A model generated the notes under the pieces. That model had not been told where the DNA came from. It did not search any database and was given only the letters and a program-made list of their open reading frames with translations. Positions 12,234 through 64,000 of a DNA stretch of 64,000 bases are shown here, piece after piece. The DNA is from a phage. The stretch is from sequence record PX068456.1. One strand, 5' to 3'. Both the position numbers and the translations under genes were made by a program. Within the stretch, counting starts at the first letter, position 1. Each line of letters begins with the position of its first letter.

Positions 12234-12315
12234 TGGTCGGGGTGACAGGATTCGAACCTGCATACTCCAATTACTCGGTTAACGCCTGATTAGAAGTCAG
12301 GTGAGATACACCCCG
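12234..12315 (-). tRNA. tRNA-like, anticodon arm reads TCT (Arg) but no normal D-arm and 23 nt between anticodon and T arms
   Basis: encoded CCA, perfect acceptor cggggtg/caccccg, T-arm acagg/attcgaa/cctgc, stem-loop cctga/CTTCTAA/tcagg. Confidence 0.4.
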
Positions 12316-16134: not shown

Positions 16135-16543
16135 TCTTTATCTCCTTAGTTGAGTTAGGACTTTATGTTCTCTACTCTACATACAGATAGATCTAAAGTC
16201 AATAGATATTTATTATTTAATTAATAATAAAATTAATAAATAATCTATTGTTAGTATAGAGCATGTATGTTAGTATTATAGACATAACATAGTGTTATAT
16301 GTAGACTACTCAGTTGTCTGTTAGATCATGTATCACAAGATTAGATAACACCCCCTCGCTGCGCTCGGCGTTTTTCGGGGGTTAGGGTAGCATACTTTTT
16401 TGCGTTTGTCAACACCTTTTTAGATTATTTTTAAGTACAACCTGAACCTCCTAAAAACGATTGTAACGAGTTTTACTGTGAGGTAAGGTGATTGCATATC
16501 TTAGGTGCTATTAGCTCGTTACAGAGCCATACAGGAGGGAATA
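16135..16543. promoter_or_regulatory. AT-rich divergent intergenic control region between the minus and plus gene blocks
   Basis: about 400 bp non-coding with an AT palindrome (ttatttaattaataataaaattaataaataa), short direct repeats and a GC island acaccccctcgctgcgctcggcgtttttcggggg. Confidence 0.4.
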
Positions 16544-17976: not shown

Positions 17977-18167
17977 TGTTCCTTATTTATTCAGGTAAAG
18001 CCAAATACATGCAAGGTGTGAAGCGTGTAGAAGTAGTAGATACTGTAACTATAGGAAAATCCTTTATTCTTTATTTGTTTTATATCAATGGAGAAAGATT
18101 TGCTGTTTCTAAGAAGTTGGTAGATAATGGTAAAACTTGGAAAGAAGAGAAACAGGAAGGGGGTTGA
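17976..18167 (+). CDS. hypothetical protein
   Basis: 63-aa ORF, overlapping start and stop. Confidence 0.45.
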   Translation: MFLIYSGKAKYMQGVKRVEVVDTVTIGKSFILYLFYINGERFAVSKKLVDNGKTWKEEKQEGG

Positions 18168-18169
18168 TA

Positions 18170-18511
18170 GTGGCTAAAATTCTTTGGTTAGACGATTTAA
18201 GAGATCCTAAAGATTATGGTTATGAGGATGCCATTTGGTTAAAATCTTTTGAGGATTGGTCATCTTTTGTTTCAGATGAAGATAATTTCAATAATATCTC
18301 AGAGATACACTTCGATAATGATCTTGGAGAAGATCAGGAAGGATATCATGCATTCTTAGACGTAGAATGTATGTTGTATGCGGGTGAATGGGATGCTCTT
18401 AAAACTATCTATGTCCATACATCAAACCCTTCTGCTGCTGGTAAATATATGTTAGCTAAGGAAAATTTTATTTCATCCTATGGTGTTGAAATTAAACGTG
18501 TTAACTATTAA
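18170..18511 (+). CDS. hypothetical acidic protein
   Basis: probable GTG start after aggaaggggg. Confidence 0.45.
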   Translation: MAKILWLDDLRDPKDYGYEDAIWLKSFEDWSSFVSDEDNFNNISEIHFDNDLGEDQEGYHAFLDVECMLYAGEWDALKTIYVHTSNPSAAGKYMLAKENFISSYGVEIKRVNY

Positions 18512-52431: not shown

Positions 52432-52755
52432 TTATACAATGTGTTTTGTTTTAACGTGCGAAGATTTAAAAATCTTATTATGTAATGCAATACAGTTATC
52501 ACGGAACACATAGTAGTTAACAACATCTGGTTTATCAACACAGAGTGTAGCCACGACTTTCATAGGTACAGATACATTCTCACGAATAGTAACACTACCT
52601 TTCAAACGTTCAGATGAAATGTGAATCAAACCTTCTTTTTCATCAATGATAACTTCTTTAACATTTTTGAAATTATAACAAGAGTTATCAACATAAGATA
52701 CCCTTGCTTTTGTTTGCTTCTGTTTAGGACGAGAACCAGTGTTTATTTTTTGCAT
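52432..52755 (-). CDS. hypothetical protein
   Basis: 107-aa ORF. Confidence 0.5.
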   Translation of the reverse strand: MQKINTGSRPKQKQTKARVSYVDNSCYNFKNVKEVIIDEKEGLIHISSERLKGSVTIRENVSVPMKVVATLCVDKPDVVNYYVFRDNCIALHNKIFKSSHVKTKHIV

Positions 52756-52763
52756 AGTTTTCC

Positions 52764-53051
52764 TTATTTGCTTTCACGAGCAAAATAATAATTTTCATAT
52801 TCATTACGTGTAACGATTTCTGGATGATCAGGTTCACCGTAACTAAGTTTAACTTCAGGATACACTTTGGTGTTGAACAGACACGTAACGCCTCTCATAT
52901 AATATCCTGTAGGACTTAAAACAACATCATCTTCACTTACACTTGAGAATTTTATCTCACCATTAGTATCTTTGACGACAATAAGAGCATGTTCAGGCCA
53001 ATCAAGATTCTCTTCTTTTAGTTTTTCATAAACTTCTTGTACTAGTTCCAT
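52764..53051 (-). CDS. hypothetical protein
   Basis: 95-aa ORF with ggagg site. Confidence 0.5.
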   Translation of the reverse strand: MELVQEVYEKLKEENLDWPEHALIVVKDTNGEIKFSSVSEDDVVLSPTGYYMRGVTCLFNTKVYPEVKLSYGEPDHPEIVTRNEYENYYFARESK

Positions 53052-53060
53052 ATTGCCTCC

Positions 53061-53234
53061 TCAGATTACAAATTTTTCTTCTTCTGGTTTCTCGTAGTTG
53101 GGAGAATAAACGTGGGATGGATTAAAACCTTTAAAGCTACCTCGCCCTTTTCTTGGACAATTGAACGTCTTAGCTTGGTGATCACCAAAAGATTTACCAC
53201 AATGTACACATTTATAATTGGTATCTTTGAACAT
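53061..53234 (-). CDS. small Cys/His-containing protein (57 aa), preferred over the track ORF 53066..53263
   Basis: aaggagagtaaaATG; translates MFKDTNYKCVHCGKSFGDH... Confidence 0.45.
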   Translation of the reverse strand: MFKDTNYKCVHCGKSFGDHQAKTFNCPRKGRGSFKGFNPSHVYSPNYEKPEEEKFVI

Positions 53235-53285
53235 TTTACTCTCCTTTGAAAGATAGGCTGCACAATAGTACAGCCTTTTATAAAA

Positions 53286-53390
53286 TTAGTGTTTAAATTT
53301 TTCGATTACTTCGTCAACTTTAGCGATGATAACATCCTGATACTTGTGACCAAAATAACCAACAACAACACCAACAATAAACGTCATCAT
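53286..53390 (-). CDS. tiny hydrophobic peptide (34 aa)
   Basis: aaaggagaag then ATG; single predicted transmembrane helix. Confidence 0.3.
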   Translation of the reverse strand: MMTFIVGVVVGYFGHKYQDVIIAKVDEVIEKFKH

Positions 53391-53990
53391 TTACTTCTCC
53401 TTTTTAACTATAATGGCTTCTTCATTCAGAGTAAACAGCAAGGAAGATGTATCACCAACACACCTTGCACCTGGAATGAGTTCTAAAATTTTAGAGGATA
53501 TAGCAATAGTAGTGTCATCCAGTACGTATTCTCCAGGTAACAATCTTAATGTTATTGGAAAATCTACAGATGCCAAACCAGAGAACATCCCATCATTCAG
53601 AAGAATAACTTCTAAACTGCTATCTTCTTGTTGTGCATTATGCACTTTTTCAGGTAAGAAGTCAATACATTGATTTAAAATTTCTACATCTAATTCTACA
53701 CCAGTCCTAGCCTTATAAACTCTAGCCAAATCTATGATCCGAGAATCAATGCTGGCGTAAGGAGATTCCAAGTGTTTTGGGTCAATAGGAGCAACGCGCA
53801 ATTTACCATCGAGAGATATCCACGTTACAATCCACATTTCACCAACTCTAGGTTGATCTCGCGCAGTAAGGAATTCTACCAATGCTCCAGGATTAGGCAT
53901 TATGTAATCTTGTGTGATCAACATGTTCTTTACTCGCAAAAGCATTCCTGGCTTTAGCAAGCCCTTCTCACCACTCCAATATTCTTTCAT
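53391..53990 (-). CDS. hypothetical protein
   Basis: 199-aa ORF. Confidence 0.55.
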   Translation of the reverse strand: MKEYWSGEKGLLKPGMLLRVKNMLITQDYIMPNPGALVEFLTARDQPRVGEMWIVTWISLDGKLRVAPIDPKHLESPYASIDSRIIDLARVYKARTGVELDVEILNQCIDFLPEKVHNAQQEDSSLEVILLNDGMFSGLASVDFPITLRLLPGEYVLDDTTIAISSKILELIPGARCVGDTSSLLFTLNEEAIIVKKEK

Positions 53991-54004
53991 TTTTACTCCT
54001 GATT

Positions 54005-54277
54005 TTAATGTCGTAGTTCACTAAACTTACAAACAAAGTGAACGTTAAGAAAAGTTAGTTTTCGATCTGGTGTAAACTCTGTTACTGTTTTATACACCTG
54101 TGCAATACCGAACCTGTTGACAGCAGGTACTGACAACTGACTTATACACTTCATAGCTGATAGTTTTGCCTCTTCTTCAGATGCAAAATAAGTAAACATA
54201 CCTTCTTCGTCAACTATAATTTCTTGTGTAACACAATCTACAAAACAAAAGAAAACATTAGGTAAGTTTTCCGACAT
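54005..54277 (-). CDS. hypothetical protein
   Basis: 90-aa ORF. Confidence 0.5.
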   Translation of the reverse strand: MSENLPNVFFCFVDCVTQEIIVDEEGMFTYFASEEEAKLSAMKCISQLSVPAVNRFGIAQVYKTVTEFTPDRKLTFLNVHFVCKFSELRH

Positions 54278-54278
54278 A

Positions 54279-54491
54279 TTAGTTGTTCCTGTACTTAGAG
54301 AACAAAGTATTGATTAACCAATCAGCAAACAGTAGTCCGAGTGTACCAATACCGTAACCGATAAGCATAATGTAAGGCACTGCCTTATTTTCATTACCTG
54401 TCATCACTTCAGGAAAAATCAAAAATACAATACCGTTACCAACGATAATCAAGAACATAAGAAACACAAAAACACGAAGCAACATCCCCAT
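54279..54491 (-). CDS. small membrane protein
   Basis: 70 aa, two hydrophobic helices. Confidence 0.5.
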   Translation of the reverse strand: MGMLLRVFVFLMFLIIVGNGIVFLIFPEVMTGNENKAVPYIMLIGYGIGTLGLLFADWLINTLFSKYRNN

Positions 54492-54492
54492 A

Positions 54493-54675
54493 TTATTCTT
54501 CCTCCTTCACTTCTTCAACTTTACGAAGCATACGTTTATCAAATGTAGCTTTCTGTAGTTGCTCATTAACATCAAACCACACTACTTCGCAAGTATCGTA
54601 AGTAGATACCATTACAGTCATTAACATTTCTTCGCTGGCAAGACGTACAATATCACCTGTTTTAATATTTACCAT
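54493..54675 (-). CDS. hypothetical protein
   Basis: 60-aa ORF. Confidence 0.45.
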   Translation of the reverse strand: MVNIKTGDIVRLASEEMLMTVMVSTYDTCEVVWFDVNEQLQKATFDKRMLRKVEEVKEEE

Positions 54676-55079
54676 AACTCCTCCAGAAGTTTACCAAGTT
54701 TAGTTTTAAATTCATTATCCCACGCTATGCTAACTATGTCAAGATCACCTTGTGAATTACGTTTTGTCTCTAAATAGTAACCACCACACCCATAGCGGTG
54801 TTTTATATGCTCGATCAGACGTTCTTTATCACTCTTAGATAAATAATCATCAAACTCCCCATTGAAAAGATCTAAGATTGTTTGTCTATTATCTCCTAAT
54901 TGAGTGATTCTAAAGCTAATCAGACACCCCTGTAAACCTATATCTGTTTGTTTAAGAGAAAACCCATGACCAAAGCCGCCTGTAACTATAACAAGCGGTT
55001 TTCCTGTGATAGAGCTTTTAATAACATCTTGCTTAGGTTCTGCCAAAGATGTTAGAAACCCTTTTAACCATTTGAACAT
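54669..55079 (-). CDS. hypothetical protein
   Basis: 136-aa ORF. Confidence 0.5.
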   Translation of the reverse strand: MFKWLKGFLTSLAEPKQDVIKSSITGKPLVIVTGGFGHGFSLKQTDIGLQGCLISFRITQLGDNRQTILDLFNGEFDDYLSKSDKERLIEHIKHRYGCGGYYLETKRNSQGDLDIVSIAWDNEFKTKLGKLLEELW

Positions 55080-55184
55080 AAACCCTCCTGTGTGGCGTGG
55101 CTTTGCCTAAGCGCCGAAGGCGCGGATCAAATATAAGCTGAATTTATTACGCCCAGGTAGCCAGGGCGCATAAATATCAGAAAT

Positions 55185-55433
55185 TTACCATCGAATAACT
55201 ATTCGAGTAAAGTTTTCATCGTAATGAGATGTTTCTGTATCAATAAAAGTTGAAAAACCTTCAGCATCCAAGTTAACTTTTACAAAAGTTGGATAAAGCG
55301 TGTAGATAGCAACTTCTCTGTCTCCATCTTTAGCTGCTCTCTCAATATACGAGTAGATATTTTGTAGACTATCCTTTGCTTTGTTAAGTTCTGCGTTTTC
55401 TGCCAGTTCTCTCATTTTATCTGCTACAGTCAT
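55185..55433 (-). CDS. hypothetical protein
   Basis: 82-aa ORF. Confidence 0.5.
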   Translation of the reverse strand: MTVADKMRELAENAELNKAKDSLQNIYSYIERAAKDGDREVAIYTLYPTFVKVNLDAEGFSTFIDTETSHYDENFTRIVIRW

Positions 55434-55702
55434 TTGTCAGTATCCTTTTCAATAAAGCCTGTGGTTTTACAAGGCACACATTCATACATTTGTCCAACAT
55501 CTGCAACCACCCAACCCATGCCACTGCAATAAGGACAGATTGTTTTGTTCTCTTTAGCATACACAGCCAGAAGTCTTTCTTCTAGCTTATTGTAATCGGC
55601 AAGAAGAACATAATCTCCTTCTGGATCTGGTACAATATCACATTGACCAGCAGCACCTTGACTGTACACCTCTAAGCCATATCGTGTAACCATTATTCCC
55701 AC
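55430..55702 (-). CDS. hypothetical protein, CDIVxDPxG family paralog A
   Basis: 90 aa; shares a CDIVPDPEGDYVLLADYNKL block with 60197..60421. Confidence 0.5.
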   Translation of the reverse strand: MGIMVTRYGLEVYSQGAAGQCDIVPDPEGDYVLLADYNKLEERLLAVYAKENKTICPYCSGMGWVVADVGQMYECVPCKTTGFIEKDTDK

Positions 55703-55911
55703 TCCGCAATTAGTTTTGGATTTTCTGCACGAGAATAGAACGTTGTAATGTCACCGTAAGTATAATCTTGTTCCGACAGTTTTACAAGAGAGATCATTTC
55801 ACGATCTGGAGTACCAGAGATCCAATCAAACACAGCAACACCACGGGGTGTTACATAGAAACCAGATGTATTACCCGTAAACTTATCTTTTGCTTTATAT
55901 AATTTGTACAC
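55693..55911 (-). CDS. hypothetical protein
   Basis: 72-aa ORF. Confidence 0.45.
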   Translation of the reverse strand: MYKLYKAKDKFTGNTSGFYVTPRGVAVFDWISGTPDREMISLVKLSEQDYTYGDITTFYSRAENPKLIAEWE

Positions 55912-56118
55912 TTTCTACTCCTCATAGATAAAATCTATTAAAAACCTACTATCAATCGGTACAAACAGTTTTACTTTTCGTAAAAAACATGCTACCCTAA
56001 TCTTATATACCGAGCGATAGCGAGGTAGAGAATATTCCATGTTATACATGGAAAGAGTATATGTAATGTTACTAACTCTATAACTAACTATATACTCTTT
56101 ATATCTTACTTACTACTC

Positions 56119-56382
56119 TTATTGAAGTTCAAAGATATCCCCATCTCCATCATATCCATACTCTAACTCTCCTGTATCATATAATACAATAAAGTCTGTA
56201 TCATCTTCAATAAAAGATTTAGCATAATCTACTAACTCTTCATTATCTTCATAACCTTCCAGGTACTCAATACGACCATTGATACACTTAGCTGCAACAA
56301 TTCCTGGGCCATTGCTTGGAGTCCACTCACTGTATACTCGCATGCCTAATTCTTTAATCATTGTTTGTCTCCTCATAATCAA
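56119..56382 (-). CDS. hypothetical acidic protein
   Basis: 87-aa ORF. Confidence 0.5.
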   Translation of the reverse strand: MIMRRQTMIKELGMRVYSEWTPSNGPGIVAAKCINGRIEYLEGYEDNEELVDYAKSFIEDDTDFIVLYDTGELEYGYDGDGDIFELQ

Positions 56383-56578
56383 CGTAATTGTAACACTTAT
56401 TCTTTAAGAAATCTTCTGCTTGTTTATTATGTTTTAGAATGGTGCACTTCTCTATGTTATGTTCTACATTGTTGTGTAGATTGTATAAGTTAGCTGCACC
56501 ATACAGAATACCAATTAACAAAAGCAAAAAGATTGCTGTTGATAACAAAAATTGTTGCAACTTGTTTACAGACTTCAT
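56354..56578 (-). CDS. small membrane-anchored protein, paralog of 60431..60649
   Basis: N-terminal transmembrane helix then KCTILKHNKQAEDFLKNKCYNYVDYE, cf. QCIVFKHQRDAEKFLALDCNRYVSYQ. Confidence 0.5.
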   Translation of the reverse strand: MKSVNKLQQFLLSTAIFLLLLIGILYGAANLYNLHNNVEHNIEKCTILKHNKQAEDFLKNKCYNYVDYEETNND

Positions 56579-56631
56579 GAATCCTCCTTATCGTTAGTAC
56601 ACATTGATACTAACAAGAAGTTAAGATCGTG

Positions 56632-56805
56632 TCAACATCTTTGTGTTAATTTTATCCACTGTTCACATTCTTCTTTTGTGTCATACTCTACAGGCTTTCC
56701 TGTATCATTTCCACAACCATCTCCGAATGTAGCCCACCAGGAGAATAGAAAACAAGTTTCTCTTACTCTCCACTTATTGGCATAAGGTACAACATAATAA
56801 CTCAT
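56632..56805 (-). CDS. small Cys-rich protein (57 aa), preferred over plus-strand track ORF 56552..56785
   Basis: minus-strand ORF in an all-minus block. Confidence 0.4.
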   Translation of the reverse strand: MSYYVVPYANKWRVRETCFLFSWWATFGDGCGNDTGKPVEYDTKEECEQWIKLTQRC

Positions 56806-57053
56806 GGGATTGTGATCCTTAGTTCATTTTTTAAAGTATGTCTCACACATTCTTTGAAATTGTTATCAATATACACCACACGTACTCCATGAGGTGTGTC
56901 TTTACATTCAAACACATTATATACAGTATCAGATAAGACATGTTGTACGTTTACTTGTCCAATGCCATTTTTAACCACAACCATTACTTTCAGTAAACTT
57001 GTATGGTTTTTAACTTCATCTGCTACGTATGCTACAACATCTTTGATATTCAT
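56802..57053 (-). CDS. hypothetical protein, paralog of the N-terminal region of 62163..62624
   Basis: VAYVADEVKNHTSLLKV...VQHVLSDTVYNVF, cf. VADYVKEHSSLLDV...VRHILSETRYEVF. Confidence 0.5.
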   Translation of the reverse strand: MNIKDVVAYVADEVKNHTSLLKVMVVVKNGIGQVNVQHVLSDTVYNVFECKDTPHGVRVVYIDNNFKECVRHTLKNELRITIP

Positions 57054-57349
57054 GGTTTCTCCTGTTTAAGTACGATATAGGATTGACGAGATTTCCATCG
57101 CCCTATCTTAACAAGGCAAATAATGCCTCTCTTTAACAAATATTTCATATCTTCGTCATAAGCTGTTTGCAATTGCCACTTACTGTTAACAGGAAGCGAA
57201 CCATGTACCCTTAAATGAGCTAACAAATACTTTCTTCGCTCCTTTCCATAAGGCAGGTATTGCCATTCTTTCTTTGATACAGGTTCATGTACTTTGCGAT
57301 GCCAGTAAGTAAGGTGTCTTCTTTTATGTAAACCCCTGTTCCTTACCAT
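57050..57349 (-). CDS. hypothetical basic protein
   Basis: 99-aa ORF. Confidence 0.5.
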   Translation of the reverse strand: MVRNRGLHKRRHLTYWHRKVHEPVSKKEWQYLPYGKERRKYLLAHLRVHGSLPVNSKWQLQTAYDEDMKYLLKRGIICLVKIGRWKSRQSYIVLKQEKP

Positions 57350-57588
57350 TATACCTCTACCTCCGTTACCCCAGGATCTCTAGTCCAGGTGTAGTAGAGC
57401 ATACCATCTTCTTTCAGTGCAATGCGATCACTTTCGTCTCGAAGATATAAGTCACAAACTACGCGCAGTTGCGGATCTGATCCGAGTAGCTCTGAAACAA
57501 TAAGGTCATCACCGCTCATACGAGCAACAATCACTGCATATTGACCAGTATCTTCATCAAAAATTGGTTGTCCGATGTTTAATTGCAT
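57349..57588 (-). CDS. hypothetical protein
   Basis: 79-aa ORF. Confidence 0.5.
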   Translation of the reverse strand: MQLNIGQPIFDEDTGQYAVIVARMSGDDLIVSELLGSDPQLRVVCDLYLRDESDRIALKEDGMLYYTWTRDPGVTEVEV

Positions 57589-57773
57589 TGTGTTGTCTCC
57601 TTATTCAGTACGTTGTTTTGTGCTGCGCACCAGCACTCATAAAAACCTTGGGTTAATGGCATAGTGTAGTTTCCAGAAGGATCTCTTTCGAGATCCCCAT
57701 CTGCATAACAACCACTACCTAAGAACCATTTTTCAAAATCGGATAAATCATCCCAGTCTACGCTATTTTTCAT
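57579..57773 (-). CDS. hypothetical protein
   Basis: start trimmed to the internal ATG (MKNSVDWDD...) just after the upstream stop. Confidence 0.4.
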   Translation of the reverse strand: MKNSVDWDDLSDFEKWFLGSGCYADGDLERDPSGNYTMPLTQGFYECWCAAQNNVLNKETTQCN

Positions 57774-57774
57774 A

Positions 57775-58233
57775 TTATACAGTCTTATACCCGACAATAG
57801 CAACCTGATTCGTAGGTTTCCAACGACCAATAATCTCACCAGAAATCTCTGTGCTACTGTTTATGTATTGGAAATGGGTATCATCATGATTAACCCACGC
57901 CATAACGTCAAGGGTAGGGGTTTTGACGTGTACCAGCAGTGTAGCCCATTCTGGGGCTTCTTTAATATCCACAAAATCTTGCCAATCTTCTTCGATGTGC
58001 CAAGTAGGTTCACCATCAACATCTGTAACGAAGAAACGAGCTTTCATACGTTTAAAGAACATTGGTGTATACCCATGATCGCACTCTGGGATAAAATCAT
58101 CCATCGTCTCGTCATAGGTGAAATATTGTCCATCTTTGTAATGAAAAGATGCACAAAACAGTTCATTACGAGCAGGAACATGCCATACAGCTACAAAACT
58201 ACGACCATGTGGATAATGTTTAACCTCTTGCAT
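57775..58233 (-). CDS. hypothetical protein
   Basis: start set to the ATG after aaggag (MQEVKHYPHG...). Confidence 0.5.
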   Translation of the reverse strand: MQEVKHYPHGRSFVAVWHVPARNELFCASFHYKDGQYFTYDETMDDFIPECDHGYTPMFFKRMKARFFVTDVDGEPTWHIEEDWQDFVDIKEAPEWATLLVHVKTPTLDVMAWVNHDDTHFQYINSSTEISGEIIGRWKPTNQVAIVGYKTV

Positions 58234-58249
58234 AGTTTTCTCCTTATTT

Positions 58250-58594
58250 TTATTCAAAAGAATCAATTCGATTTTGTTCTATGTCAATTGCAGCATCTAA
58301 GATAAGTTTTAATGCTTCAAATTGCAAGTGTTCTTCTAAAGAGAAGACATATAAAACAACGGACTCCAAGTAAGACAGCACCCCAAGACTAAGAGTTGCA
58401 ATTTCTACTCCTGCATCGGAGAAGCCTGTTTGCAAAACTTCTTTGAAGAAACGTTGTTTATCAACAATAGCAGATAAAATAAGCGTTTTACGCTCCTCTG
58501 CTGATCGCACTGTGCAGTATATGTTGCTAAAAGAATCCAGCCACATTTTGATCATACCTTGGCGGTACATAAGGATTTCAATATCAGCCAACAT
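58250..58594 (-). CDS. hypothetical protein
   Basis: start trimmed to the ATG after gagga (MLADIEIL...). Confidence 0.45.
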   Translation of the reverse strand: MLADIEILMYRQGMIKMWLDSFSNIYCTVRSAEERKTLILSAIVDKQRFFKEVLQTGFSDAGVEIATLSLGVLSYLESVVLYVFSLEEHLQFEALKLILDAAIDIEQNRIDSFE

Positions 58595-58595
58595 A

Positions 58596-58784
58596 TTATT
58601 TATCCTCTGGAGAAAGATTTGTATTAATTTGATAGTAAAAATCAAAATCCTTGTGCTGATCGCACCATTCTTGAGCCTCTTTAAATGACGCAAATTGCAT
58701 AGTGAATGTTGCCATCCACGTGTTCATATTTTTATTAAACTTGTCGATAAAAAATGTTTGCATTATTCCTCCCATTTTATCCAA
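58596..58784 (-). CDS. hypothetical protein
   Basis: 62-aa ORF. Confidence 0.45.
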   Translation of the reverse strand: MDKMGGIMQTFFIDKFNKNMNTWMATFTMQFASFKEAQEWCDQHKDFDFYYQINTNLSPEDK

Positions 58785-58996
58785 AGGCAGTATTCTGGAA
58801 CATAAACCTCTTTCCCTTTGTTATTCACAAAGGTGTACTCCACGAATTCTGCTTTATATGTTTTGTTATATTCCTCTGCTGCTGGCACAGGACATTTTGT
58901 AATGCGCGTTTCAGTCCAACGGCGGTGTATAACCGCCTTGTTCTTTGGATCAAACGGATGTATAAAGTGCGTTTTACTCATGTGCCATTTCCACAA
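58763..58996 (-). CDS. hypothetical protein
   Basis: 77-aa ORF. Confidence 0.45.
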   Translation of the reverse strand: MWKWHMSKTHFIHPFDPKNKAVIHRRWTETRITKCPVPAAEEYNKTYKAEFVEYTFVNNKGKEVYVPEYCLWIKWEE

Positions 58997-59378
58997 GATT
59001 TTTAATCATAGTTTCTCGACAGAGATTCCACATATCTGAAGCAACCATAGAGGCATATTCATCGGGGTTGGATTCTGGTAAAATCTCTTTAACTGCTTCT
59101 GGTGTCGGATTGCAGAGAGCAGGTAGTGCTTTAAGTGCATCTTCAATAGAGAGCTTCTTACCTTCACTGTAAATAATCTCGTAACCATAATCATTTACAT
59201 CTTCTGAAATATCCCGATCCAGGTAACGTACAGTGGAGTTATGCATTTTGTTCATAGCTTCACTAACACCTGCGCCACAAAGCTGTGCAACTTCTTCAGA
59301 GATACAATCACAAATAACAACTTCATAAGGTTTTCCACCATAATACTGCGCATTATATTTGATTTTAACAGACCACAT
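58974..59378 (-). CDS. hypothetical protein
   Basis: 134-aa ORF. Confidence 0.5.
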   Translation of the reverse strand: MWSVKIKYNAQYYGGKPYEVVICDCISEEVAQLCGAGVSEAMNKMHNSTVRYLDRDISEDVNDYGYEIIYSEGKKLSIEDALKALPALCNPTPEAVKEILPESNPDEYASMVASDMWNLCRETMIKNLVEMAHE

Positions 59379-59433
59379 ATCACTCTCCTTATTTAACGTG
59401 TTTTAGCAATTCAATAAAACATAATCTCTTTCA

Positions 59434-60018
59434 TTACACATCCTCCATTTGGAACATCTCTTTGTGGTTAGAATAGATCTGTTTGAAAATCTTGTCAAGA
59501 CGTTCATATGATTCTTTATGCTCTTGTTTCCATCCTTGATTTCGGATTTTATCTGCCAGATCATAAGCCTCGCATAAAACTTTGGCAAAATTGGTATTAT
59601 CTATAGCACAAGCCTCAAAACCCTGAACTAAACCCTCTACATCGTACCACGTGTAGTCAGAGTTACTAGGAGGCTTTCCTGCGTCGGCTAAACGTTGCCT
59701 TACCCATTCAATACGTTTTTCATTCAAATGGCACTTACCTTCCCTACACTCTTGTTCTAATTCTTCTTTAGATTCGTTGAATGGGTGAAGGACAGGAAGT
59801 TCTGCTTTTTGCAATTGCTCCAGGTATTCACCTACAATGCGCATAGCTTCACTGTGTGTACACTTTCTGCCTGTGTGCCAGTAACGGAAGATACTTTCTG
59901 TTAAACAGATGCTTTTACTAAACATCGCATTGTCTTTAACATTCGATCTAGTAACCCAGTCTATATAATATACATAAAACTGCAATAATTCATAACTGCT
60001 TGGTATAATTTTACTCAT
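59434..60018 (-). CDS. hypothetical protein, LLQFY...HPFN family paralog 1
   Basis: 194 aa; shares LLQFY, HPFN and HLNEKRIEWV blocks with 60642..61010 and 62986..63408. Confidence 0.55.
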   Translation of the reverse strand: MSKIIPSSYELLQFYVYYIDWVTRSNVKDNAMFSKSICLTESIFRYWHTGRKCTHSEAMRIVGEYLEQLQKAELPVLHPFNESKEELEQECREGKCHLNEKRIEWVRQRLADAGKPPSNSDYTWYDVEGLVQGFEACAIDNTNFAKVLCEAYDLADKIRNQGWKQEHKESYERLDKIFKQIYSNHKEMFQMEDV

Positions 60019-60027
60019 GACCTCTCC

Positions 60028-60195
60028 TTAATTGTGAAAAATGTTATCGATCAGTATGATTAGTAGTACGAGGATAGAAGGGAGTAGGAATAGAAATCTT
60101 AACATTATGTGACGCGTGTGAGAAGCGGCTTTAGCTCCAGCCGCCAATAAGCCTACTAGTCCTACAATAAAGAGCAGTTGTTCAGGGACACCCAT
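60028..60195 (-). CDS. small membrane protein (55 aa, not in the ORF track)
   Basis: two hydrophobic segments; weak ribosome-binding site. Confidence 0.35.
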   Translation of the reverse strand: MGVPEQLLFIVGLVGLLAAGAKAASHTRHIMLRFLFLLPSILVLLIILIDNIFHN

Positions 60196-60196
60196 A

Positions 60197-60421
60197 TTAT
60201 GGAACACTTGGATACTCCGTAAGTTTGGCTAACAGTTGAATATGTGGACACGTGAATTGTTGTCCTGGGTAGCGTGAGCTAATATCATCCAGCAAAGCAA
60301 TCACAGCATTGTGCAATGCTTCGTAATCTTCATAATACACCATTTCTCCATTAGGATCTTCCACAATATCGCAGTGACAAGCGTGAGCAGTACACGCATC
60401 CCATTCCAGACGTTTTACCAT
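60197..60421 (-). CDS. hypothetical protein, CDIVxDPxG family paralog B
   Basis: 74 aa; CDIVEDPNGEMVYYEDYEAL block. Confidence 0.5.
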   Translation of the reverse strand: MVKRLEWDACTAHACHCDIVEDPNGEMVYYEDYEALHNAVIALLDDISSRYPGQQFTCPHIQLLAKLTEYPSVP

Positions 60422-60430
60422 AAACCCTCC

Positions 60431-60649
60431 TTACTCATACATTTGATAAGATACATAACGGTTGCAATCAAGTGCGAGAAACTTTTCAGCATCCCTTTGA
60501 TGCTTGAACACAATACACTGTTCTTTTTTAGCTTCACTTTCACGAGCTTCTCTTGCCATATGCTCACCTAAACGAATGATACCAGAGAATAACACGTATG
60601 CAAGAATAAGACAAACAGAGATTGCACAGAAAGTTTTAAACTTAATCAT
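60431..60649 (-). CDS. small membrane-anchored protein, paralog of 56354..56578
   Basis: start set to the ATG after ggagg (MIKFKTF...). Confidence 0.5.
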   Translation of the reverse strand: MIKFKTFCAISVCLILAYVLFSGIIRLGEHMAREARESEAKKEQCIVFKHQRDAEKFLALDCNRYVSYQMYE

Positions 60650-61010
60650 TGTATTCCTCCATATCACGAATACGATCAATCACCCATTGTACACGTTCTT
60701 TGTTAAGGTGCGCAATGCCTAACTCTGTTTCCGTAAAGTAGTGTGAGAAATCTGTATTAAATGGGTGTAAATGGTTCAAACCCGCTTTCTTAAACTGTTC
60801 CTTCATTTCCTCTCGTACAGAGGCTTGAAGGTTTGCTACATTCTCAACGTCTTTTATCCAAGCAATATTGTATAAGAAGTCTACAAGACACGTGCAAAGA
60901 CCATAATGCTTTTTGCTAAAGTTTGTATCTTCTTGTTCTAACCACCACTCATAAAATTGTAGCAAATAGGTGCTGCTTTTCATGTTACACACTTTATTAT
61001 TCTCTTGCAT
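60642..61010 (-). CDS. hypothetical protein, LLQFY...HPFN family paralog 2
   Basis: 122 aa; LLQFYEWW, GLCTCLVDFL, HLHPFN, HLNKERVQWVIDRI. Confidence 0.55.
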   Translation of the reverse strand: MQENNKVCNMKSSTYLLQFYEWWLEQEDTNFSKKHYGLCTCLVDFLYNIAWIKDVENVANLQASVREEMKEQFKKAGLNHLHPFNTDFSHYFTETELGIAHLNKERVQWVIDRIRDMEEYND

Positions 61011-61019
61011 GATCTATCC

Positions 61020-61319
61020 TTAATGCCAATCTACGATCACTGAATCTACAAAACCCTCTTTGGTGTTTAAAGCATACACCTTACTAAGTCCACGCTCTCG
61101 CAGTGCTTCCATAGCAAGATCAATCAAATCCACTTGGCGTTTCCTTGCTTGTTCATTTGTCGGATAGTCATCCAAACCGAAAACAGATGGTTTAAATGCC
61201 TTGGAGTATTTGCCAGTTTTTGCCTGATCATAACAATCCTGAATAACTTCATCAATAGGAAACCACAAGCCTTCTCCACTTTGCTTTGCAATACAGCGCA
61301 GTTTTTCTGTAACAGTCAT
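61020..61319 (-). CDS. hypothetical protein
   Basis: 99-aa ORF. Confidence 0.5.
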   Translation of the reverse strand: MTVTEKLRCIAKQSGEGLWFPIDEVIQDCYDQAKTGKYSKAFKPSVFGLDDYPTNEQARKRQVDLIDLAMEALRERGLSKVYALNTKEGFVDSVIVDWH

Positions 61320-61537
61320 TCTTCCTCTCCTTTCAATTTACACTCAAAGATACCATTCTTAATGTTATCTGTCAAATAAAGGCTATCTTCTATCTCTTCT
61401 TTTGTATACACATAAGCCTCCTTTTCCACGTCTGTCAGACCTTGCATCGGAGCTAGTAGCCACCAGCCCCGCCAGTCAAACATAGGAGACTTATCAGATA
61501 CACGAAGAATGTATCTATCATTACACATATTATACAA
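61316..61537 (-). CDS. hypothetical protein
   Basis: 73-aa ORF. Confidence 0.45.
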   Translation of the reverse strand: MYNMCNDRYILRVSDKSPMFDWRGWWLLAPMQGLTDVEKEAYVYTKEEIEDSLYLTDNIKNGIFECKLKGEEE

Positions 61538-61982
61538 TGTTCACATGAACATCTGCAACACCAATAAGCGAATATACTTCAACTACACTCTGTGTACGAT
61601 CCAGTTTGTAACGTTTTGCCTCTTTTTCAACTTCCTCACGGTAGGTTGTTTCCATGATTGGAACTCCGTCCACTACTAGCAGGTATTTCTCTTCACGTTT
61701 ACTTTTTGGTGCTTCCTCTAATACTTCTACAAAGTATTCAAACTCACTTTTTGCAAGCAATGTGTAACACTGACGAAAATCGCCTTCGTTTTGAGTGATA
61801 ATTTCTTGTTCTCCTGCTAAGGATTGCAAAGAAGTTACACCATACCAGTCATCCACATCTAATACACGAAAACAGGAATCACCTAAGAAAAAAGCAATCT
61901 TGCTATTGCACTCAGACACATTACCAAACTTACGGATATAAGATGCGTTTTTAAAACGATACACTTTACCAATTTCAAACAT
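61530..61982 (-). CDS. hypothetical protein
   Basis: 150-aa ORF. Confidence 0.5.
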   Translation of the reverse strand: MFEIGKVYRFKNASYIRKFGNVSECNSKIAFFLGDSCFRVLDVDDWYGVTSLQSLAGEQEIITQNEGDFRQCYTLLAKSEFEYFVEVLEEAPKSKREEKYLLVVDGVPIMETTYREEVEKEAKRYKLDRTQSVVEVYSLIGVADVHVNIV

Positions 61983-61996
61983 TACACAACTCCTTA

Positions 61997-62170
61997 TTAT
62001 TCAAGAGTAAAAGGAATGATCTCACCATAGCTGTATTGCATGGCATTCACTTCTGCTTCTGCACGTTGTGCTAGTTCTAATGTTGCACAGATCTTGTAAG
62101 GAACAGTGCTGCATTGGCTCCAGCCTGGGGTATTCTTTGTTACTAAGTACACAGTAGTTTCTTTATTCAT
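61997..62170 (-). CDS. small hypothetical protein (57 aa, not in the ORF track)
   Basis: aggagaggaaagttATG. Confidence 0.45.
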   Translation of the reverse strand: MNKETTVYLVTKNTPGWSQCSTVPYKICATLELAQRAEAEVNAMQYSYGEIIPFTLE

Positions 62171-62624
62171 AACTTTCCTCTCCTAGTTCATCATACCATT
62201 TCAAAGCATCTTTTGGAAGCATACCAAAATCTTCTTTCAGTTCTTTTTCAATCTCTTCTTTCAGTTCATTCAACACTTGCAGTTGGCGTATTTTCTTCCG
62301 TAACAAAGTTTCCCGCTCATTGTTGCTTGGTGTTACTTCATTTGCTGCCATCATCACATATCCGGTCGGAGAGCAAGGAAGATAATCATCAATATTTTCT
62401 AAAGCATAACGAAAATTGGAATCCAAGAAGTTTACATGCACTTGATCACATCCAAACAACTTGGCACGAAATACTTCATAACGAGTTTCAGATAAGATAT
62501 GTCGCACACAGACAATACCTACATCATTTTGCACTGCACAGGTTACATCTAACAAACTTGAGTGTTCTTTGACATAATCTGCAACACATTGCACATGTGC
62601 TTCCAGTATAGATAGTTGTCTCAT
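62163..62624 (-). CDS. hypothetical protein, N-terminal region paralogous to 56802..57053
   Basis: 153 aa with an acidic coiled-coil-like C-terminus. Confidence 0.5.
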   Translation of the reverse strand: MRQLSILEAHVQCVADYVKEHSSLLDVTCAVQNDVGIVCVRHILSETRYEVFRAKLFGCDQVHVNFLDSNFRYALENIDDYLPCSPTGYVMMAANEVTPSNNERETLLRKKIRQLQVLNELKEEIEKELKEDFGMLPKDALKWYDELGEESYE

Positions 62625-62684
62625 TTTCTACCTCCCCATAATGCTAACATTATTCTGTTGTGGTGTGATCATTGCACACAACCT

Positions 62685-62915
62685 TTAATAAACAATTTCA
62701 TATTCATGAGGAAAGAAAACATAATCTTCCCCTTCTCGTGCATCTATCTCGTCCCAAAACCATTCCTGCACTTCCATCATCTTCGAGAATCGCACATGAG
62801 CAAGCCCACTGTATTCCACCGTAGCTTCCAATACTAGTGGAAATTTTACATGGGTAAGTCCTTTATAACCACCATCATTCTCAATACGAATTTTCATGTG
62901 TTTCATGTTATGCAT
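62685..62915 (-). CDS. hypothetical protein
   Basis: 76-aa ORF. Confidence 0.45.
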   Translation of the reverse strand: MHNMKHMKIRIENDGGYKGLTHVKFPLVLEATVEYSGLAHVRFSKMMEVQEWFWDEIDAREGEDYVFFPHEYEIVY

Positions 62916-62985
62916 TTCATCTCCTCATTGGCTATTTGTTATGCGCGGTATTGCATATCTTATGGAACACAGTGTACAGACATTT

Positions 62986-63408
62986 CTACTCAATGCAAGC
63001 ATTATTTGCATCTTCGATTCTGTCTTTCACCCACTGCAATCTCTTTGGGTTGGTATGGCAAGAATGTGTCTTACCTTCATCTTCATAACACAGAAGATCA
63101 TAATTAAAGGGTAGGAAGGAGGATAGCCCAGCACACGTGAATTGCAGTTTCATCTCTTCCAGCGTTTTGCTACGAACCATCTTGAAATGTTCTATATCTT
63201 CTTGCGTAGGTTTTTTCTTTGACATAGTGGTTGCCAGGTAATCCATAAGGCAATTACACAAACCAACATTCTCACGATGCATTGAGGAATGATCTTCCAT
63301 CCATGCTTTGTAAAATTCTAACAGCAGTGGACTGCTAAGAGGAACACACATATCAGACTCCTTTATAAGATTACGTTTCATGCCACACATCATACAGCGT
63401 CTTTTCAT
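62986..63408 (-). CDS. hypothetical Cys-rich protein, LLQFY...HPFN family paralog 3; first gene of the minus-strand block
   Basis: 140 aa; LLLEFYKAWM, GLCNCLMDYL, LPFN, RLQWVKDRI. Confidence 0.55.
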   Translation of the reverse strand: MKRRCMMCGMKRNLIKESDMCVPLSSPLLLEFYKAWMEDHSSMHRENVGLCNCLMDYLATTMSKKKPTQEDIEHFKMVRSKTLEEMKLQFTCAGLSSFLPFNYDLLCYEDEGKTHSCHTNPKRLQWVKDRIEDANNACIE

Positions 63409-64000
63409 CTGTTACAAGAACAGCAACATAGGAACATCATTAATGAAGGATTTAGTATAGGATTTCCCTATCAATTATTCTATATATACCTATTATTTTT
63501 AACACACCCCTTAGTACATAATATAGACAAATAAATATCTATGCCACAAAAATTTTCCGGTATACCCGATTTATTTCGACACACCCCCTTTTCATAAGCG
63601 TAAAGTCAATAATATCAATAACTTGCCGCAAAATACTGCTCGCTTGCGAGAGGTGCTTAACGCGATTTTTAGCGCCCCCCGATTTCTGCCGACCGTCCCC
63701 CTCAAATATCAATGAGAATTATTATCATTTGCATTATCATTCAATGACTTATAAGACTTTTGATTATTTTCTAAGCAAGAAAGGCATTACTCACAACAAA
63801 ACAGATAAATTCTAAGCAAATCAATGGCTTGGCAAGTCTAAACATCTATATACACCTTGCCAAATGAAATGATCCTGCGTGAAATAGTGCCACCCGTGGA
63901 AGATAGCTGATAATGATTATCATTTGCATACTTTCTATACTATAAAACGCCCTAAAAATCAAAATAATTCTGATTTATTGCGCTTTTAAGAAAGTAGGCT
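63409..64000. promoter_or_regulatory. non-coding repeat-rich control region upstream of the minus-strand small-gene block
   Basis: no ORF of 60 aa or more; GC islands (acacccc, cgccccccg, cgtccccc) in AT-rich DNA; direct repeats attatcatttgcat (about 63721 and 63919) and ttctaagcaa (about 63770 and 63811). Confidence 0.45.

Follow-up and report, generated by a model that had tools for sequence, protein, structure and literature searches.

The record PX068456.1, of which we analyzed a stretch of 64,000 nucleotides of phage DNA (the window), contains two long non-coding regions, at 16135-16543 and 63409-64000. The left one raises the question of whether the short G/C islands in its AT-rich DNA are a control signal shared with the right one. 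An earlier note had proposed that they are, and that both regions could hold early promoters, an origin or the sites of a phage regulator. Judged from its sequence, the window is part of a phi92-like E. coli myovirus (Justusliebigvirus), and the phage identity and the background on direct terminal repeats (DTRs) in its relatives were taken from published work (PMC12210895, PMC11350853, PMC12695924). The homology, conservation, motif statistics and covariation described below were determined directly. The explanation that we consider probable as a whole is that both regions are real but mutually unrelated, and that they are distinct control regions without a common functional GC motif.

All of the strings quoted in the earlier note were present at or near the positions that it had named: acaccccctcgc at 16348-16359, acacacccctt at 63502-63512, cgacacaccccctttt at 63578-63593, gcgccccccgatttc at 63672-63686 and cgtccccctc at 63694-63703. 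The direct repeats attatcatttgcat were found at 63721 and 63915, a separation of 195 bp where about 200 had been claimed, and ttctaagcaa occurred twice (63769 and 63810). The AT palindrome of the left region corresponded to an AT-only run at 16206-16244 between CAATAGAT and ATCTATTG. The strings are thus real, but the islands did not hold up as one common motif. The two regions had also been described as the largest non-coding ones; this is correct for 63409-64000, the largest without tRNAs, while 16135-16543 is comparable to other gaps. Credible ORFs or hidden small genes were found in neither region.

When the right region was compared with the ends of related phage genomes, as the earlier note had suggested, it proved to be the DTR annotated in phi92, UAB_1 and BME3. 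The DTR occupies 343 bp (63658..64000), and the end of the window is the physical end of the genome; the window covers one genome end, and the status as a repeat was assigned by homology to relatives. The sequence at 63658-64000 was 97% identical to both end copies in UAB_1 and 96% identical to the phi92 copies, and the two copies were identical to each other within UAB_1 and within phi92. The DTR of BME3 is 342 bp long by PhageTerm (same papers as above), and several records begin exactly at the position equivalent to 64000. The DTR itself is already annotated in relatives and is known biology. The location of the right region at the head of a gene block, as had been claimed, turned out to be an effect of the linear map, since the genes flanking the DTR in the concatemer share one direction. 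A unique non-coding leader (63409..63657, minus strand) separates the DTR from the first gene of the left arm (ATG 63408). No sigma70 promoter scoring 10 or more was found in the leader or over the DTR palindromes, the best site reaching 9/12; a weak minus-strand TTGGCA-N17-TAGACT at 63863-63835 was conserved only moderately.

The invariant 12-mer TGCTTAACGCGA (63654..63665, plus strand) straddles the inner DTR edge, with the putative cut between 63657 and 63658, and we propose it as the terminase cleavage or nicking site. It was identical in 7 phages of several genera and was also present in further contigs. The outer edge reads GTAGGCT (63994..64000, plus strand), and in the concatemer the CAAC half would follow it, past the end of the window. 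With a slash marking the cut, the outer junctions are AGGCT/CAAC in UAB_1 and phi92, GGTGCT/CAAC in Tr1 and CGTGCT/CAAC in phiWec181 and L034. A GCT/YAAC core was found at both DTR edges across several genera, 343 bp apart at the annotated edges of phi92 and UAB_1 and 321-344 bp apart at homologous positions in four other lineages. Such 7-mers occurred only 11 times on that strand in 147 kb, and GTGCTYAAC occurred once in the window. In the concatemer the repeat is bounded on either side by (G)GTGCT/YAAC, and we infer that terminase would cut or nick there, yielding repeat-ended genomes. A scan of IMG/VR with a 17-mer edge motif gave 21 matches, mostly the number expected by chance; only 4 were relatives, and L018 and L036 were unrelated.

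The islands on either side of the inner edge belong to a C-run repeat of 25 nt. Its copy 2, CCCGATTTATTTCGACACACCCCCT (63565..63589, plus strand), lies 68 nt left of the DTR edge and holds the island at 63578, and copy 3, CCCGATTTCTGCCGACCGTCCCCCT (63678..63702, plus strand), lies 21 nt inside the DTR and holds the islands at 63680-63700. These copies, at 63565 and 63678, form a repeat family (D1) whose pattern matched nowhere else in the window, with 0 expected. A weaker third copy (72% identity; 63488..63512, plus strand), which includes ACACACCCC, is located in the leader block, and the block that carries it is conserved in Phapecoctavirus. The copy at 63565..63589 was partly conserved in Klebsiella phages and Tr1, and the C-rich patch at 63678..63702 was kept in all genera compared. 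The two copies flanking the inner cut may serve as accessory terminase-binding sites, comparable to cosB or to pacL/pacR.

Each attatcatttgcat repeat proved to be the right half of a 15-bp palindrome, and both palindromes fit the Fur operator consensus. The Fur box consensus is GATAATGATAATCATTATC, with the 7-1-7 reading TGATAATnATTATCA (PMC11353095; a further consensus source is PMC10665472), and Fur boxes are found upstream of sitABCD on lambdoid prophages (PMC6969025). Palindrome 1, TGAGAAT-t-ATTATCA (63713..63727), matches all but one of the 14 positions of the 7-1-7 consensus and scored 15.3 bits with a Fur matrix built from 11 published iron boxes, whose training sites score 13.5-26.8 bits. 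Palindrome 2, TGATAAT-g-ATTATCA (63908..63927), is a perfect 7-1-7 match (15/15), agrees with GATAATGATAATCATTATC at 17/19 positions (0.07 expected per window) and is the best Fur-matrix match of the genome, at 22.4 bits. Matches reaching 16 bits numbered 9, compared with 0.3 in simulations, and 8 sites lay within 1 mismatch of the palindrome, all of them intergenic, compared with 0.013 expected. The same palindrome was also present in two other large early-region non-coding gaps, including five tandem sites at 136 kb. Between genera, palindrome 1 was kept as a palindrome, and in the Klebsiella phages it was symmetrically changed to TGAGAATCATTCTCA. Near the palindromes we found only weak 9/12 promoter-like sites, and none convincingly overlapped a palindrome in the way in which a Fur box overlaps the -35/-10 of a repressed promoter. 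We propose that a dimeric protein, most likely host Fe-Fur, would bind the DTR palindromes; the Fur-like operators are candidate sites of a kind already known.

The alternative that survives best keeps the dimer and changes its owner. The palindromes may bind a phage-encoded protein, such as an early repressor, an initiator of replication or the small subunit of terminase, and their likeness to Fur boxes would then have arisen by convergence of AT-rich palindromes. Roughly half of the half-sites have TGAGAAT in place of TGATAAT, the Klebsiella phages alter both arms symmetrically, the five tandem sites at 136 kb look iteron-like, the DTR sites lack an overlapping promoter, and the sites are conserved in phages from several host genera, all of which is consistent with a phage dimer. 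However, a matrix derived from bacterial iron boxes alone gave the phage sites 15-22 bits, inside the genuine-operator range of 13.5-26.8, and both TGAGAAT and ATTCTC half-sites are present in published iron boxes. The neighboring genes, considered as a source of such a protein, contained no detected DNA-binding domain, although they are mostly of unknown function. We regard a phage-encoded dimer as a real possibility with somewhat less than even prospects.

In the left region, the G/C island was part of a promoter-hairpin module on the minus strand (copy 1, 16345..16424; 71.2 bits). In this copy, the -35 box TTGACA (16412-16407) is followed, after a spacer of 17, by TG-c-TACCCT (16392-16384) and by the hairpin core CCGAGCGCAGCGAGG (16368-16354). 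The hairpin is lengthened by CCCCC/GGGGG (16381-16350), and ACACCCCC, which the earlier note had taken as a motif, is only a local stem extension. Copy 2 (55958..56034, plus strand; 66.5 bits) consists of the -35 box TTTTAC, TGCTACCCT and the hairpin CCGAGCGATAGCGAGG; it runs antisense to the left-arm genes, toward the genome end, and this arrangement is conserved in orthologous contigs. The general form is a hairpin, CC-GA-GC-G(N)A-GC-GA-GG, about 10-15 nt downstream of a sigma70-type promoter, TTGACA-N17-TG-c-TACCCT, whose extended -10 is unusual and strictly conserved. The window holds two copies, compared with 0 expected. A covariance model found exactly 2 copies in the window and 3 in the full genome, at 66-80 bits; the next match did not exceed 14 bits, and no more divergent copies were revealed by this search of the window and the full genome. 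The third copy is located at 129 kb in UAB_1, beyond the window, and its orthologues precede a gene by 40-80 nt, as an ordinary promoter and its 5' UTR would.

The module family comprised 49 distinct sequences, 45 of them intergenic and most with a -35 box TTGAC(T/A) at 17-18 nt, while a few variants had no -35 box. The pattern used to gather them held the 11-mer and the hairpin core constant, so that only the flanks were free to vary. Across the 49 sequences, the outer stem showed a covariation score of 0.28; shuffles gave 0.165 (0/500 reached 0.28) and slid controls 0.15 at most. The score of the stem derives from 2-3 outer pairs, and in half of the sequences one position does not pair. The exchanges were CG, AU and UA, and the compensatory pairs were 8-24 (CG 15, AU 6, UA 1) and 6-26 (UA 9, UG 8, CG 4). 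Five divergent copies folded alike, and the thermodynamic z-score of copy 1 was weak. These results point to a structured RNA with pairs maintained by compensatory changes around a core that the search pattern had fixed. The hairpin would form at the 5' end of the transcript as a specific factor-binding mark on three transcripts, acting in antitermination or in the control of stability or processing. As at nut/boxB, it stands soon after a promoter that heads a terminator-containing operon, and terminator units were present inside the downstream blocks. A general antitermination role is weakened by the 35-kb plus-strand block, which has no module. A search for boxA-type elements found AGATCTAAC boxes after copy 1 but not after the other copies. 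We consider the module to be a candidate element of a kind already known.

The left region as a whole is a predicted zone of divergent and tandem promoters. Downstream of the module, the minus-strand transcript would meet operator-like boxes, an AT palindrome in the position of an UP element and a canonical promoter beside the PRPP-synthetase gene, and a third promoter would fire in the opposite direction. The proximal sigma70-like promoter, TTGACT-N17-TAGAGT (16174..16202, minus strand), lies 33-40 nt upstream of the RBS and ATG (16134) of the PRPP-synthetase gene and has conserved counterparts, with TTGACT/C-N17-TATACT or TAGTAT, in Tr1 and in five other contigs. The AT-only tract at 16206-16244, within the inverted repeat CAATAGAT/ATCTATTG (16200..16250), is placed between back-to-back -35 boxes, as an UP element would be; its core, TTATTTAATTAATA, was conserved in Tr1 and appears as TTAATTAA in more distant contigs. 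On the plus strand, the sigma70-like promoter TTGTTA-N17-TAGTAT (16248..16276) would serve the 35-kb rightward block. Both of its hexamers were conserved in Tr1 (TTGTAA-N17-TAGTAT) across a variable spacer, and the promoter was not seen in the more distant contigs. The dyad GACTACTCAGTTGTC with the adjoining TGTTAGATC box (16304..16318) is conserved and operator-like; the Tr1 counterpart of the dyad, GACAACTCAGTAGTC, is nearly its reverse complement, and the AGATCTAAC boxes were conserved in other genera.

As evident from Tr1 and the more distant contigs, this layout is conserved across genera. TTGACA-N17-TGcTACCCT and TTGACT-N17-TAGAGT both have -35 and -10 hexamers within the 16-18 bp spacing range, are oriented toward genes and are conserved around a variable spacer, and the sigma70 hexamers were conserved in Tr1 and in metagenomic relatives. 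Throughout the genome, strong sigma70-like sites face the same direction as their genes. The transcription starts predicted from these promoters lie near 16377 and 16167 on the minus strand and near 16283 on the plus strand, and that of module copy 2 near 56005 on the plus strand.

A replication origin has also to be weighed for this region. The module and the AT tract downstream of it could form a transcription-activated origin, in which a transcript or R-loop primes synthesis and the displaced strand forms a very stable GCGNAGC DNA mini-hairpin, giving three origins per genome. In copy 1, the promoter and a stable mini-hairpin are followed 130 nt downstream by an AT-only tract, and copy 2 likewise precedes AT-rich DNA; one copy is antisense and directed toward the genome end, an orientation that would be strange for gene expression. 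The layout also resembles that of T4 oriF/oriG and of the T7 primary origins, and GCGAAGC hairpins occur at phage origins. On the other hand, the orthologues of the third copy behave as an ordinary promoter with a 5' UTR, and the frequent U-G pairs suit RNA over DNA. Among origin features, the left region contained the 39-bp AT-only tract but neither iterons nor DnaA boxes. The copy-1 region is a turning point of GC skew, but the skew turns at each change of gene orientation, so that it is uninformative and neither supports nor excludes an origin. We consider an origin unlikely here, and a promoter zone with a transcribed hairpin remains our preferred reading of the left region.

The left island might instead be an intrinsic terminator or attenuator, possibly ending an RNA of ~90 nt from the plus-strand promoter. 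A scan found CGCTG-CGCT-CGGCG followed by TTTTT on the plus strand, and about half of the intergenic G/C runs of the genome are terminator-like. Conservation decides against this: Tr1 has lost both the T-run and the pairing of the inner stem, yet it keeps the sequence CCTCGCTTCGCTCGG. In addition, the upstream promoter on the other strand recurs in all 49 sequences (a few without a -35 box), U-G wobble pairs favor folding of the minus strand, and the island lies outside the stereotyped terminator units. We therefore rejected the terminator or small-RNA end, which we consider very unlikely.

The proposal that a single GGGGGTGT-type motif in both regions is the site of one phage regulator or an early-promoter mark had some statistical basis. 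ACACCCC was over-represented in the window (7 found compared with 2.8 expected; 0/100 shuffles reached 7). In a complete relative, 8/13 copies were intergenic, compared with an intergenic share of the genome of only 9.8%; the equal frequency inside coding DNA that the earlier note had said would refute the idea was thus not observed. Additionally, GGGGTGTG occurred 4 times in UAB_1, each time in terminal or early-region non-coding DNA adjoining the early arms. However, C5/G5 runs as a class were not enriched (20 found compared with 27.9 expected); of the G/C runs in this AT-rich genome, 33/39 were intergenic, and about half of the intergenic ones lay inside terminator-like hairpins. The ACACCCC contexts were mutually unrelated, comprising a tRNA acceptor stem, terminator stems, a probable intron and a coding match. 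The left-hand ACACCCCC was not conserved in Citrobacter phage Tr1 despite its conserved flanks, and it is accounted for as an extension of the hairpin stem. The two regions had only a 9-mer in common, and BLAST between them gave only short AT-rich words. A unifying GC motif with a single regulator is accordingly rejected as highly improbable; what stands of the earlier interpretation is the genome terminus together with promoter-like and operator-like elements in both regions. That the repeats and islands are functionless chance features of AT-rich non-coding DNA is scarcely credible, given the blocks conserved between genera, the near-zero expectations in shuffle and Markov controls and the hairpin covariation, even though thermodynamic z-scores were weak and the TTCTAAGCAA pair, which was not conserved even inside the genus and is probably due to chance, was dropped as a functional repeat.

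Three details of these regions appear to be unreported, namely the edge motif, the Fur-grade palindromes and the promoter-hairpin module. The conserved cut-site core at both edges would provide a mutable target for the study of short-terminal-repeat generation in a large myovirus family used in phage therapy, and the edge motif offers a simple orientation rule for new assemblies, which are in many cases deposited in circularly permuted form. Palindromes of Fur-operator grade in the ends and early gaps of a virulent phage would tie infection to host iron physiology. The module, with three copies per genome and a distribution across genera and metagenomes, is a candidate class of regulatory RNA or promoter in a group with an unmapped transcription program. 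A more far-reaching proposal, which we put forward tentatively and hold to be rather doubtful, is that the genomes of phi92-like virulent phages contain host Fur operators of high affinity in arrays (two sites in the DTR, a tandem group of five in the gap at 136 kb and a further two close to the right end) at which Fe-Fur binds the incoming and replicating genome, and, separately, that the three promoter-hairpin modules mark a phage-specific class of transcripts. If so, Fe-Fur binding would make early transcription or end processing depend on the iron status of the host; alternatively, the rising copy number of phage DNA would titrate Fur off the host regulon.

Compared with known systems, the DTR has the same sequence, length (343 bp) and position as those of phi92 and Stephanstirmvirinae (FR775895.2, OL656106.1; BME3 by PhageTerm), and the last base of the window is the first base of phi92-type records such as these. 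The records and papers on these relatives give DTR coordinates only; the edge motif at both DTR ends, the 25-nt repeats and the Fur-like palindromes are unannotated there and appear to be unreported.

The edge showed no sequence similarity to cos or pac sites; the resemblance to known terminase regions lies in organization. Recognition regions with a cut site and flanking repeats include lambda cosN with the cosB R-sites, SPP1 pacL-pacC-pacR and the T7/T3 concatemer junctions with their short repeat arrays. As in these regions, a conserved cut-site sequence is accompanied by repeated short elements within about 20-70 bp, and one concatemer copy of a short terminal repeat has to give rise to two. 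Unlike in these systems, the same GCT/YAAC core is present in direct orientation at both repeat edges, the cut site here being putative.

The palindromes resemble the E. coli Fur box in their perfect 7-1-7 match and operator-grade scores, and strongly Fur-repressed promoters in that the sites also occur in arrays. They differ from E. coli and prophage Fur boxes in their location, which is a virulent-phage DTR and early gaps rather than the -35/-10 of an iron-uptake or cargo gene, and in the G at position 4 of about half of the half-sites (TGAGAAT, not TGATAAT).

Among known origins are the T4 middle-promoter origins oriF and oriG and the T7 primary origin; d(GCGAAGC) mini-hairpins, too, occur at phage origins. 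In common with these, the left region has a promoter followed by an AT-rich unwinding tract and, within the element, a mini-hairpin of GCGNAGC type, its role as an origin being putative; in contrast to the T4 and T7 origins, one orthologous copy behaves as an ordinary 5' UTR.

For the hairpin, Rfam at gathering thresholds returned only tRNAs in the window. The 3' hairpin consensus of the GA-cis RNA (RF02987), GCCGCcGAgcGaAagcGAgGGGGC, is almost identical to the CGCCGAGCGCAGCGAGGGGG of the module, but a 5' stem match would need an RNA starting upstream of the predicted promoter; the match in the window scored 21.1 bits compared with a gathering threshold of 34.7, none of 15 other module loci reached the threshold, and the assignment was rejected. 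Hairpins that mark transcripts close to their promoters include lambda nut boxB, HK022 put, the rrn boxB-boxA leader and 5' stabilizing hairpins such as that of ompA. The module differs from a boxB-type loop in its core, a tandem G.A internal loop with a GNA or GNNA loop, and from nut and rrn in that no boxA is common to the three copies, an N-like protein was not found and one copy is antisense to genes. Like all of these hairpins, it is small, has a strictly conserved core and lies directly downstream of a few key promoters, which here head long terminator-containing blocks and are present at low copy number per genome.

A sequence search revealed that approximately 56-83 deposited phage genomes matched both non-coding regions, 16135-16543 (left region) and 63409-64000 (right region), at 95-99.6% identity; these genomes were those of Escherichia phage phi92 and its relatives (Justusliebigvirus, Stephanstirmvirinae). 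Neither region contained a credible ORF. The genes lay in blocks on the minus strand (to 16134), the plus strand (16544-51949) and the minus strand (52432-63408), with 16 tRNA genes at 9.8-12.7 kb. Rfam also called a tRNA at 12237-12315 (minus strand, 40 bits) that was absent from the ARAGORN list and from the annotation of the complete relative UAB_1. Three left-arm genes, all on the minus strand (62986-63408, 60642-61010 and 59434-60018), were paralogues, each matching three families without known function (phrog_2510, phrog_27059 and phrog_6418). The protein encoded at 18137-18511 (plus strand) contained a cREC_REC 'cyclic-phosphate processing receiver' domain (PF20274, E 8e-14), and phosphoesterase and RNA ligase homologues were located downstream; these genes may form an RNA-repair cassette.

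The earlier note had proposed GC islands common to the two regions. All of the quoted strings were found at, or a few bases from, their reported positions. ACACCCC was enriched in the window (7 observed vs 2.8 expected), and C5/G5 runs as a class were not (20 vs 27.9). When the complete UAB_1 genome was scored against its own CDS table, the 9.8% of the sequence that is intergenic contained 33 of the 39 C5/G5 runs and 8 of the 13 ACACCCC copies; equal frequency in coding DNA, named in the note as the outcome that would count against its proposal, was therefore not observed. An unbiased k-mer count revealed that the dominant GC-rich intergenic words were stereotyped hairpins such as AAAGGGGC-GAAA-GCCCCTTT, and terminator-like hairpins held approximately half of the intergenic G/C runs. 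The ACACCCC contexts were mutually unrelated: a tRNA acceptor stem (that of the Rfam-called tRNA at 12237-12315, minus strand), terminator stems, a probable intron and a coding match. Thus, in this AT-rich genome, G/C runs mark intergenic signals in general rather than forming a single motif; the two regions are real control DNA, and the GC-motif link between them is not real. In UAB_1, a 282-bp insert with many G/C runs (119084-119365) splits the anaerobic ribonucleotide reductase gene and is probably an intron. Recurrent stereotyped hairpins (GGCGGGAAATGGTTTCCCGCC) and a near-consensus TTGACA promoter before nearly every small right-arm gene were present at 136.6-146.3 kb of UAB_1, and the left arm had no promoters as strong as these.

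The right region was compared with the genome termini of related phages. The deposited UAB_1 and phi92 genomes are linear, each carrying an annotated 343-bp direct terminal repeat at its two ends, and window positions 63658-64000 matched this repeat. The first base of both records is the last base of the window, and several further records likewise begin at the base equivalent to 64000. Given this homology and the shared record starts, the right region appears to be a 249-bp unique leader followed by the terminal repeat. Its supposed location at the head of a gene block reflected the linear map, as the flanking genes are co-oriented in the concatemer. Published work describes the UAB_1 repeat and states that the subfamily generally has terminal repeats, and PhageTerm gave a 342-bp repeat for BME3. 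The BME3 record (PP239276.1) contained three copies of the terminal-repeat sequence (146169-147371 and 1-342), and its annotated 'DTR-L' was offset relative to phi92 and UAB_1; this record looks mis-assembled around the terminus.

We aligned the repeat edges of the window, Tr1 (Citrobacter), phiWec181 and ESCO5 (Phapecoctavirus), and FKP3 and KP13-26 (Klebsiella). TGCTTAACGCGA (63654-63665) was invariant across the annotated inner edge (63657|63658), and this held with further contigs. The outer edge, as read from the concatemer junction rebuilt from the UAB_1 and phi92 ends, was AGGCT|CAAC, with GGTGCT|CAAC in Tr1 and CGTGCT|CAAC in Phapecoctavirus-like genomes; all shared a core with the inner GGTGCT|TAAC. 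The spacing between the inner and outer sites was 343, 344, 330-332 and 321 bp in four lineages. Because only 11 GCTYAAC sites were present on the relevant strand in 147 kb, a chance match to the independently annotated outer edge was unlikely (approximately 1 in 10,000), and GTGCTYAAC occurred once in the window. We infer that the terminase cuts or nicks at GCT|YAAC. Directly beyond the outer edge, FKP3, KP13-26 and Tr1 contained 2-3 additional GTGCT|CAACA copies spaced 67-69 bp apart, some followed by small GC hairpins.

The repeat finder assigned the right-hand GC islands to a 25-nt unit present three times (63488, 63565 and 63678). Copy 2 lay 68 nt outside the inner edge and copy 3 lay 21 nt inside it; these two were the only exact matches to CCCGATTTnTnnCGACnnnCCCCCT in the window (none expected). 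The C-rich patch directly inside this edge was retained in all genera compared. By analogy with cosB or pacL/pacR, copies 2 and 3 may be accessory terminase sites, at which terminase would bind. GGGGTGTG occurred four times in UAB_1, each time in non-coding DNA beside the early arms.

The attatcatttgcat repeats formed the right arms of two 15-bp palindromes: TGAGAAT-t-ATTATCA at 63713-63727 and TGATAAT-g-ATTATCA at 63908-63922. The latter was a perfect 7-1-7 Fur-box match and agreed with 17 of the 19 positions of GATAATGATAATCATTATC (consensus from PMC11353095), with 0.07 matches expected per window. With up to one mismatch allowed, TGAKAATnATTMTCA, a consensus derived in part from the phage itself, matched eight UAB_1 sites; all eight were intergenic (0.013 expected), with two in the terminal repeat, four in an 812-bp gap at 135.6-136.4 kb and two in the right-end gap. 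One further site at two mismatches brought the 812-bp gap to five in tandem. An independent matrix built from 11 published Gram-negative iron boxes (PMC10665472) placed its genome-best match in the terminal repeat (22.4 bits) and gave 9 matches of at least 16 bits vs 0.3 in simulations, and the scores of the phage sites were within the range of genuine operators. The palindromes were kept across genera and, in Klebsiella phages, both arms were altered symmetrically, the signature of a dimer-bound site. Host Fur is the preferred candidate for the protein that would bind them, and a protein encoded by the phage is a serious competing candidate. The genes adjoining the repeat palindromes showed no DNA-binding domain, and no strong promoter lay over these palindromes. 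In the 812-bp gap (135605-136416), the largest non-coding gap of UAB_1, the five Fur-box-like palindromes were 17-29 bp apart. This gap also contained GGGGTGTG once and, on the minus strand, a strong TTGACA-N17-TATACT promoter downstream of which no gene is annotated.

Tr1 was approximately 70% identical over the centre of the left region, revealing a footprint of conserved elements. The ACACCCCC run was not conserved, and the AT core, a plus-strand TTGTTA-N17-TAGTAT, CCTCGCTGCGCTCGGC, TTAGGGTAGCATACTT and TTGTCAAC were kept; the dyad GACTACTCAGTTGTC was also conserved, the Tr1 version being approximately its reverse complement. On the minus strand, CCTCGCTGCGCTCGGC, TTAGGGTAGCATACTT and TTGTCAAC read TTGACA-N17-TG-c-TACCCT followed by CCGAGCGCAGCGAGG. 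When all intergenic DNA was scanned uniformly for sigma70 sites, this candidate promoter ranked best in the region. Sigma70-like sites were nearly always co-oriented with their genes genome-wide. In the wider alignment, the minus-strand order was this promoter, a hairpin, AGATCTAAC boxes with the dyad, an AT-rich tract, a second canonical promoter (TTGACT-N17-TAGAGT, 16202-16174), an RBS and the ATG at 16134; this order places the AT palindrome in a putative UP-element position between two back-to-back -35 boxes. The left GC island of the earlier note is the hairpin with a local CCCCC/GGGGG extension. A perfect 9-bp inverted repeat, TGTAACGAG / CTCGTTACA (16461-16469 and 16516-16524, plus strand), lay in the leader directly upstream of the first plus-strand gene (ATG 16544) and could form a 5'-UTR stem-loop near the RBS.

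The 12-mer ATGCTACCCTAA recurred in two further intergenic regions, each time preceded at 17-18 nt by a -35 box and followed after 10-15 nt by a CCGAGCG-N(1-2)-AGCGAGG box. The pattern of this promoter-hairpin module matched the window at 16355-16392 (minus strand) and 55990-56024 (plus strand), with none expected. The second copy (55958-56034, plus strand) lay inside a 207-bp gap between two minus-strand early genes, antisense and toward the genome end, an arrangement conserved in other genera. Pattern scans of viral and metagenome contigs yielded 49 distinct sequences, 45 of them intergenic and most with TTGAC(T/A) at the right spacing; the core was fixed by the pattern, so variation was possible only in the flanks. 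In five divergent examples the box folded into an outer stem, tandem G.A pairs, a GC stem and a GNA or GNNA loop. The outer stem covaried through CG, AU and UA exchanges, scoring 0.28 vs 0.165 in shuffles (0 of 500 reached 0.28) and at most 0.15 in slid controls, and many U-G pairs favoured the promoter strand as the folded one. With a covariance model, the window gave two copies and no more (71 and 67 bits; next match at 11), and UAB_1 gave exactly three (80, 71 and 67 bits; next match at 14). Two copies head gene blocks, the PRPP-synthetase/tRNA/structural block in one case and the replication block in the other; the third runs antisense through left-arm genes toward the genome end and is conserved as an orthologous group. 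Because the internal loop was strictly conserved while the outer stem covaried, the comparison argues for specific recognition over a generic stabilising hairpin. Start sites at the module and other promoters are predicted, and the hairpin may mark three special transcripts at their 5' ends for binding by a factor; a transcription-primed replication origin is a less probable but live alternative.

What is observed directly here is homology to annotated repeats, conservation across genera, motif statistics and covariation. The terminal repeat itself is established biology. New details, each of a known kind, are the edge motif, the Fur-grade palindromes and the three-copy module, all of which merit experiments. 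The module hairpin was almost identical in sequence to the Rfam GA-cis hairpin; this is a resemblance only, as the match did not reach the threshold and was not seen in the other copies. A literature search found no report of Fur boxes in the terminal repeat of a virulent phage. Fur boxes have been reported on temperate phages (PMC6969025), where they precede sitABCD, whereas the candidate sites of the phi92-like phages sit in the terminal repeat and early-region gaps of a virulent phage.
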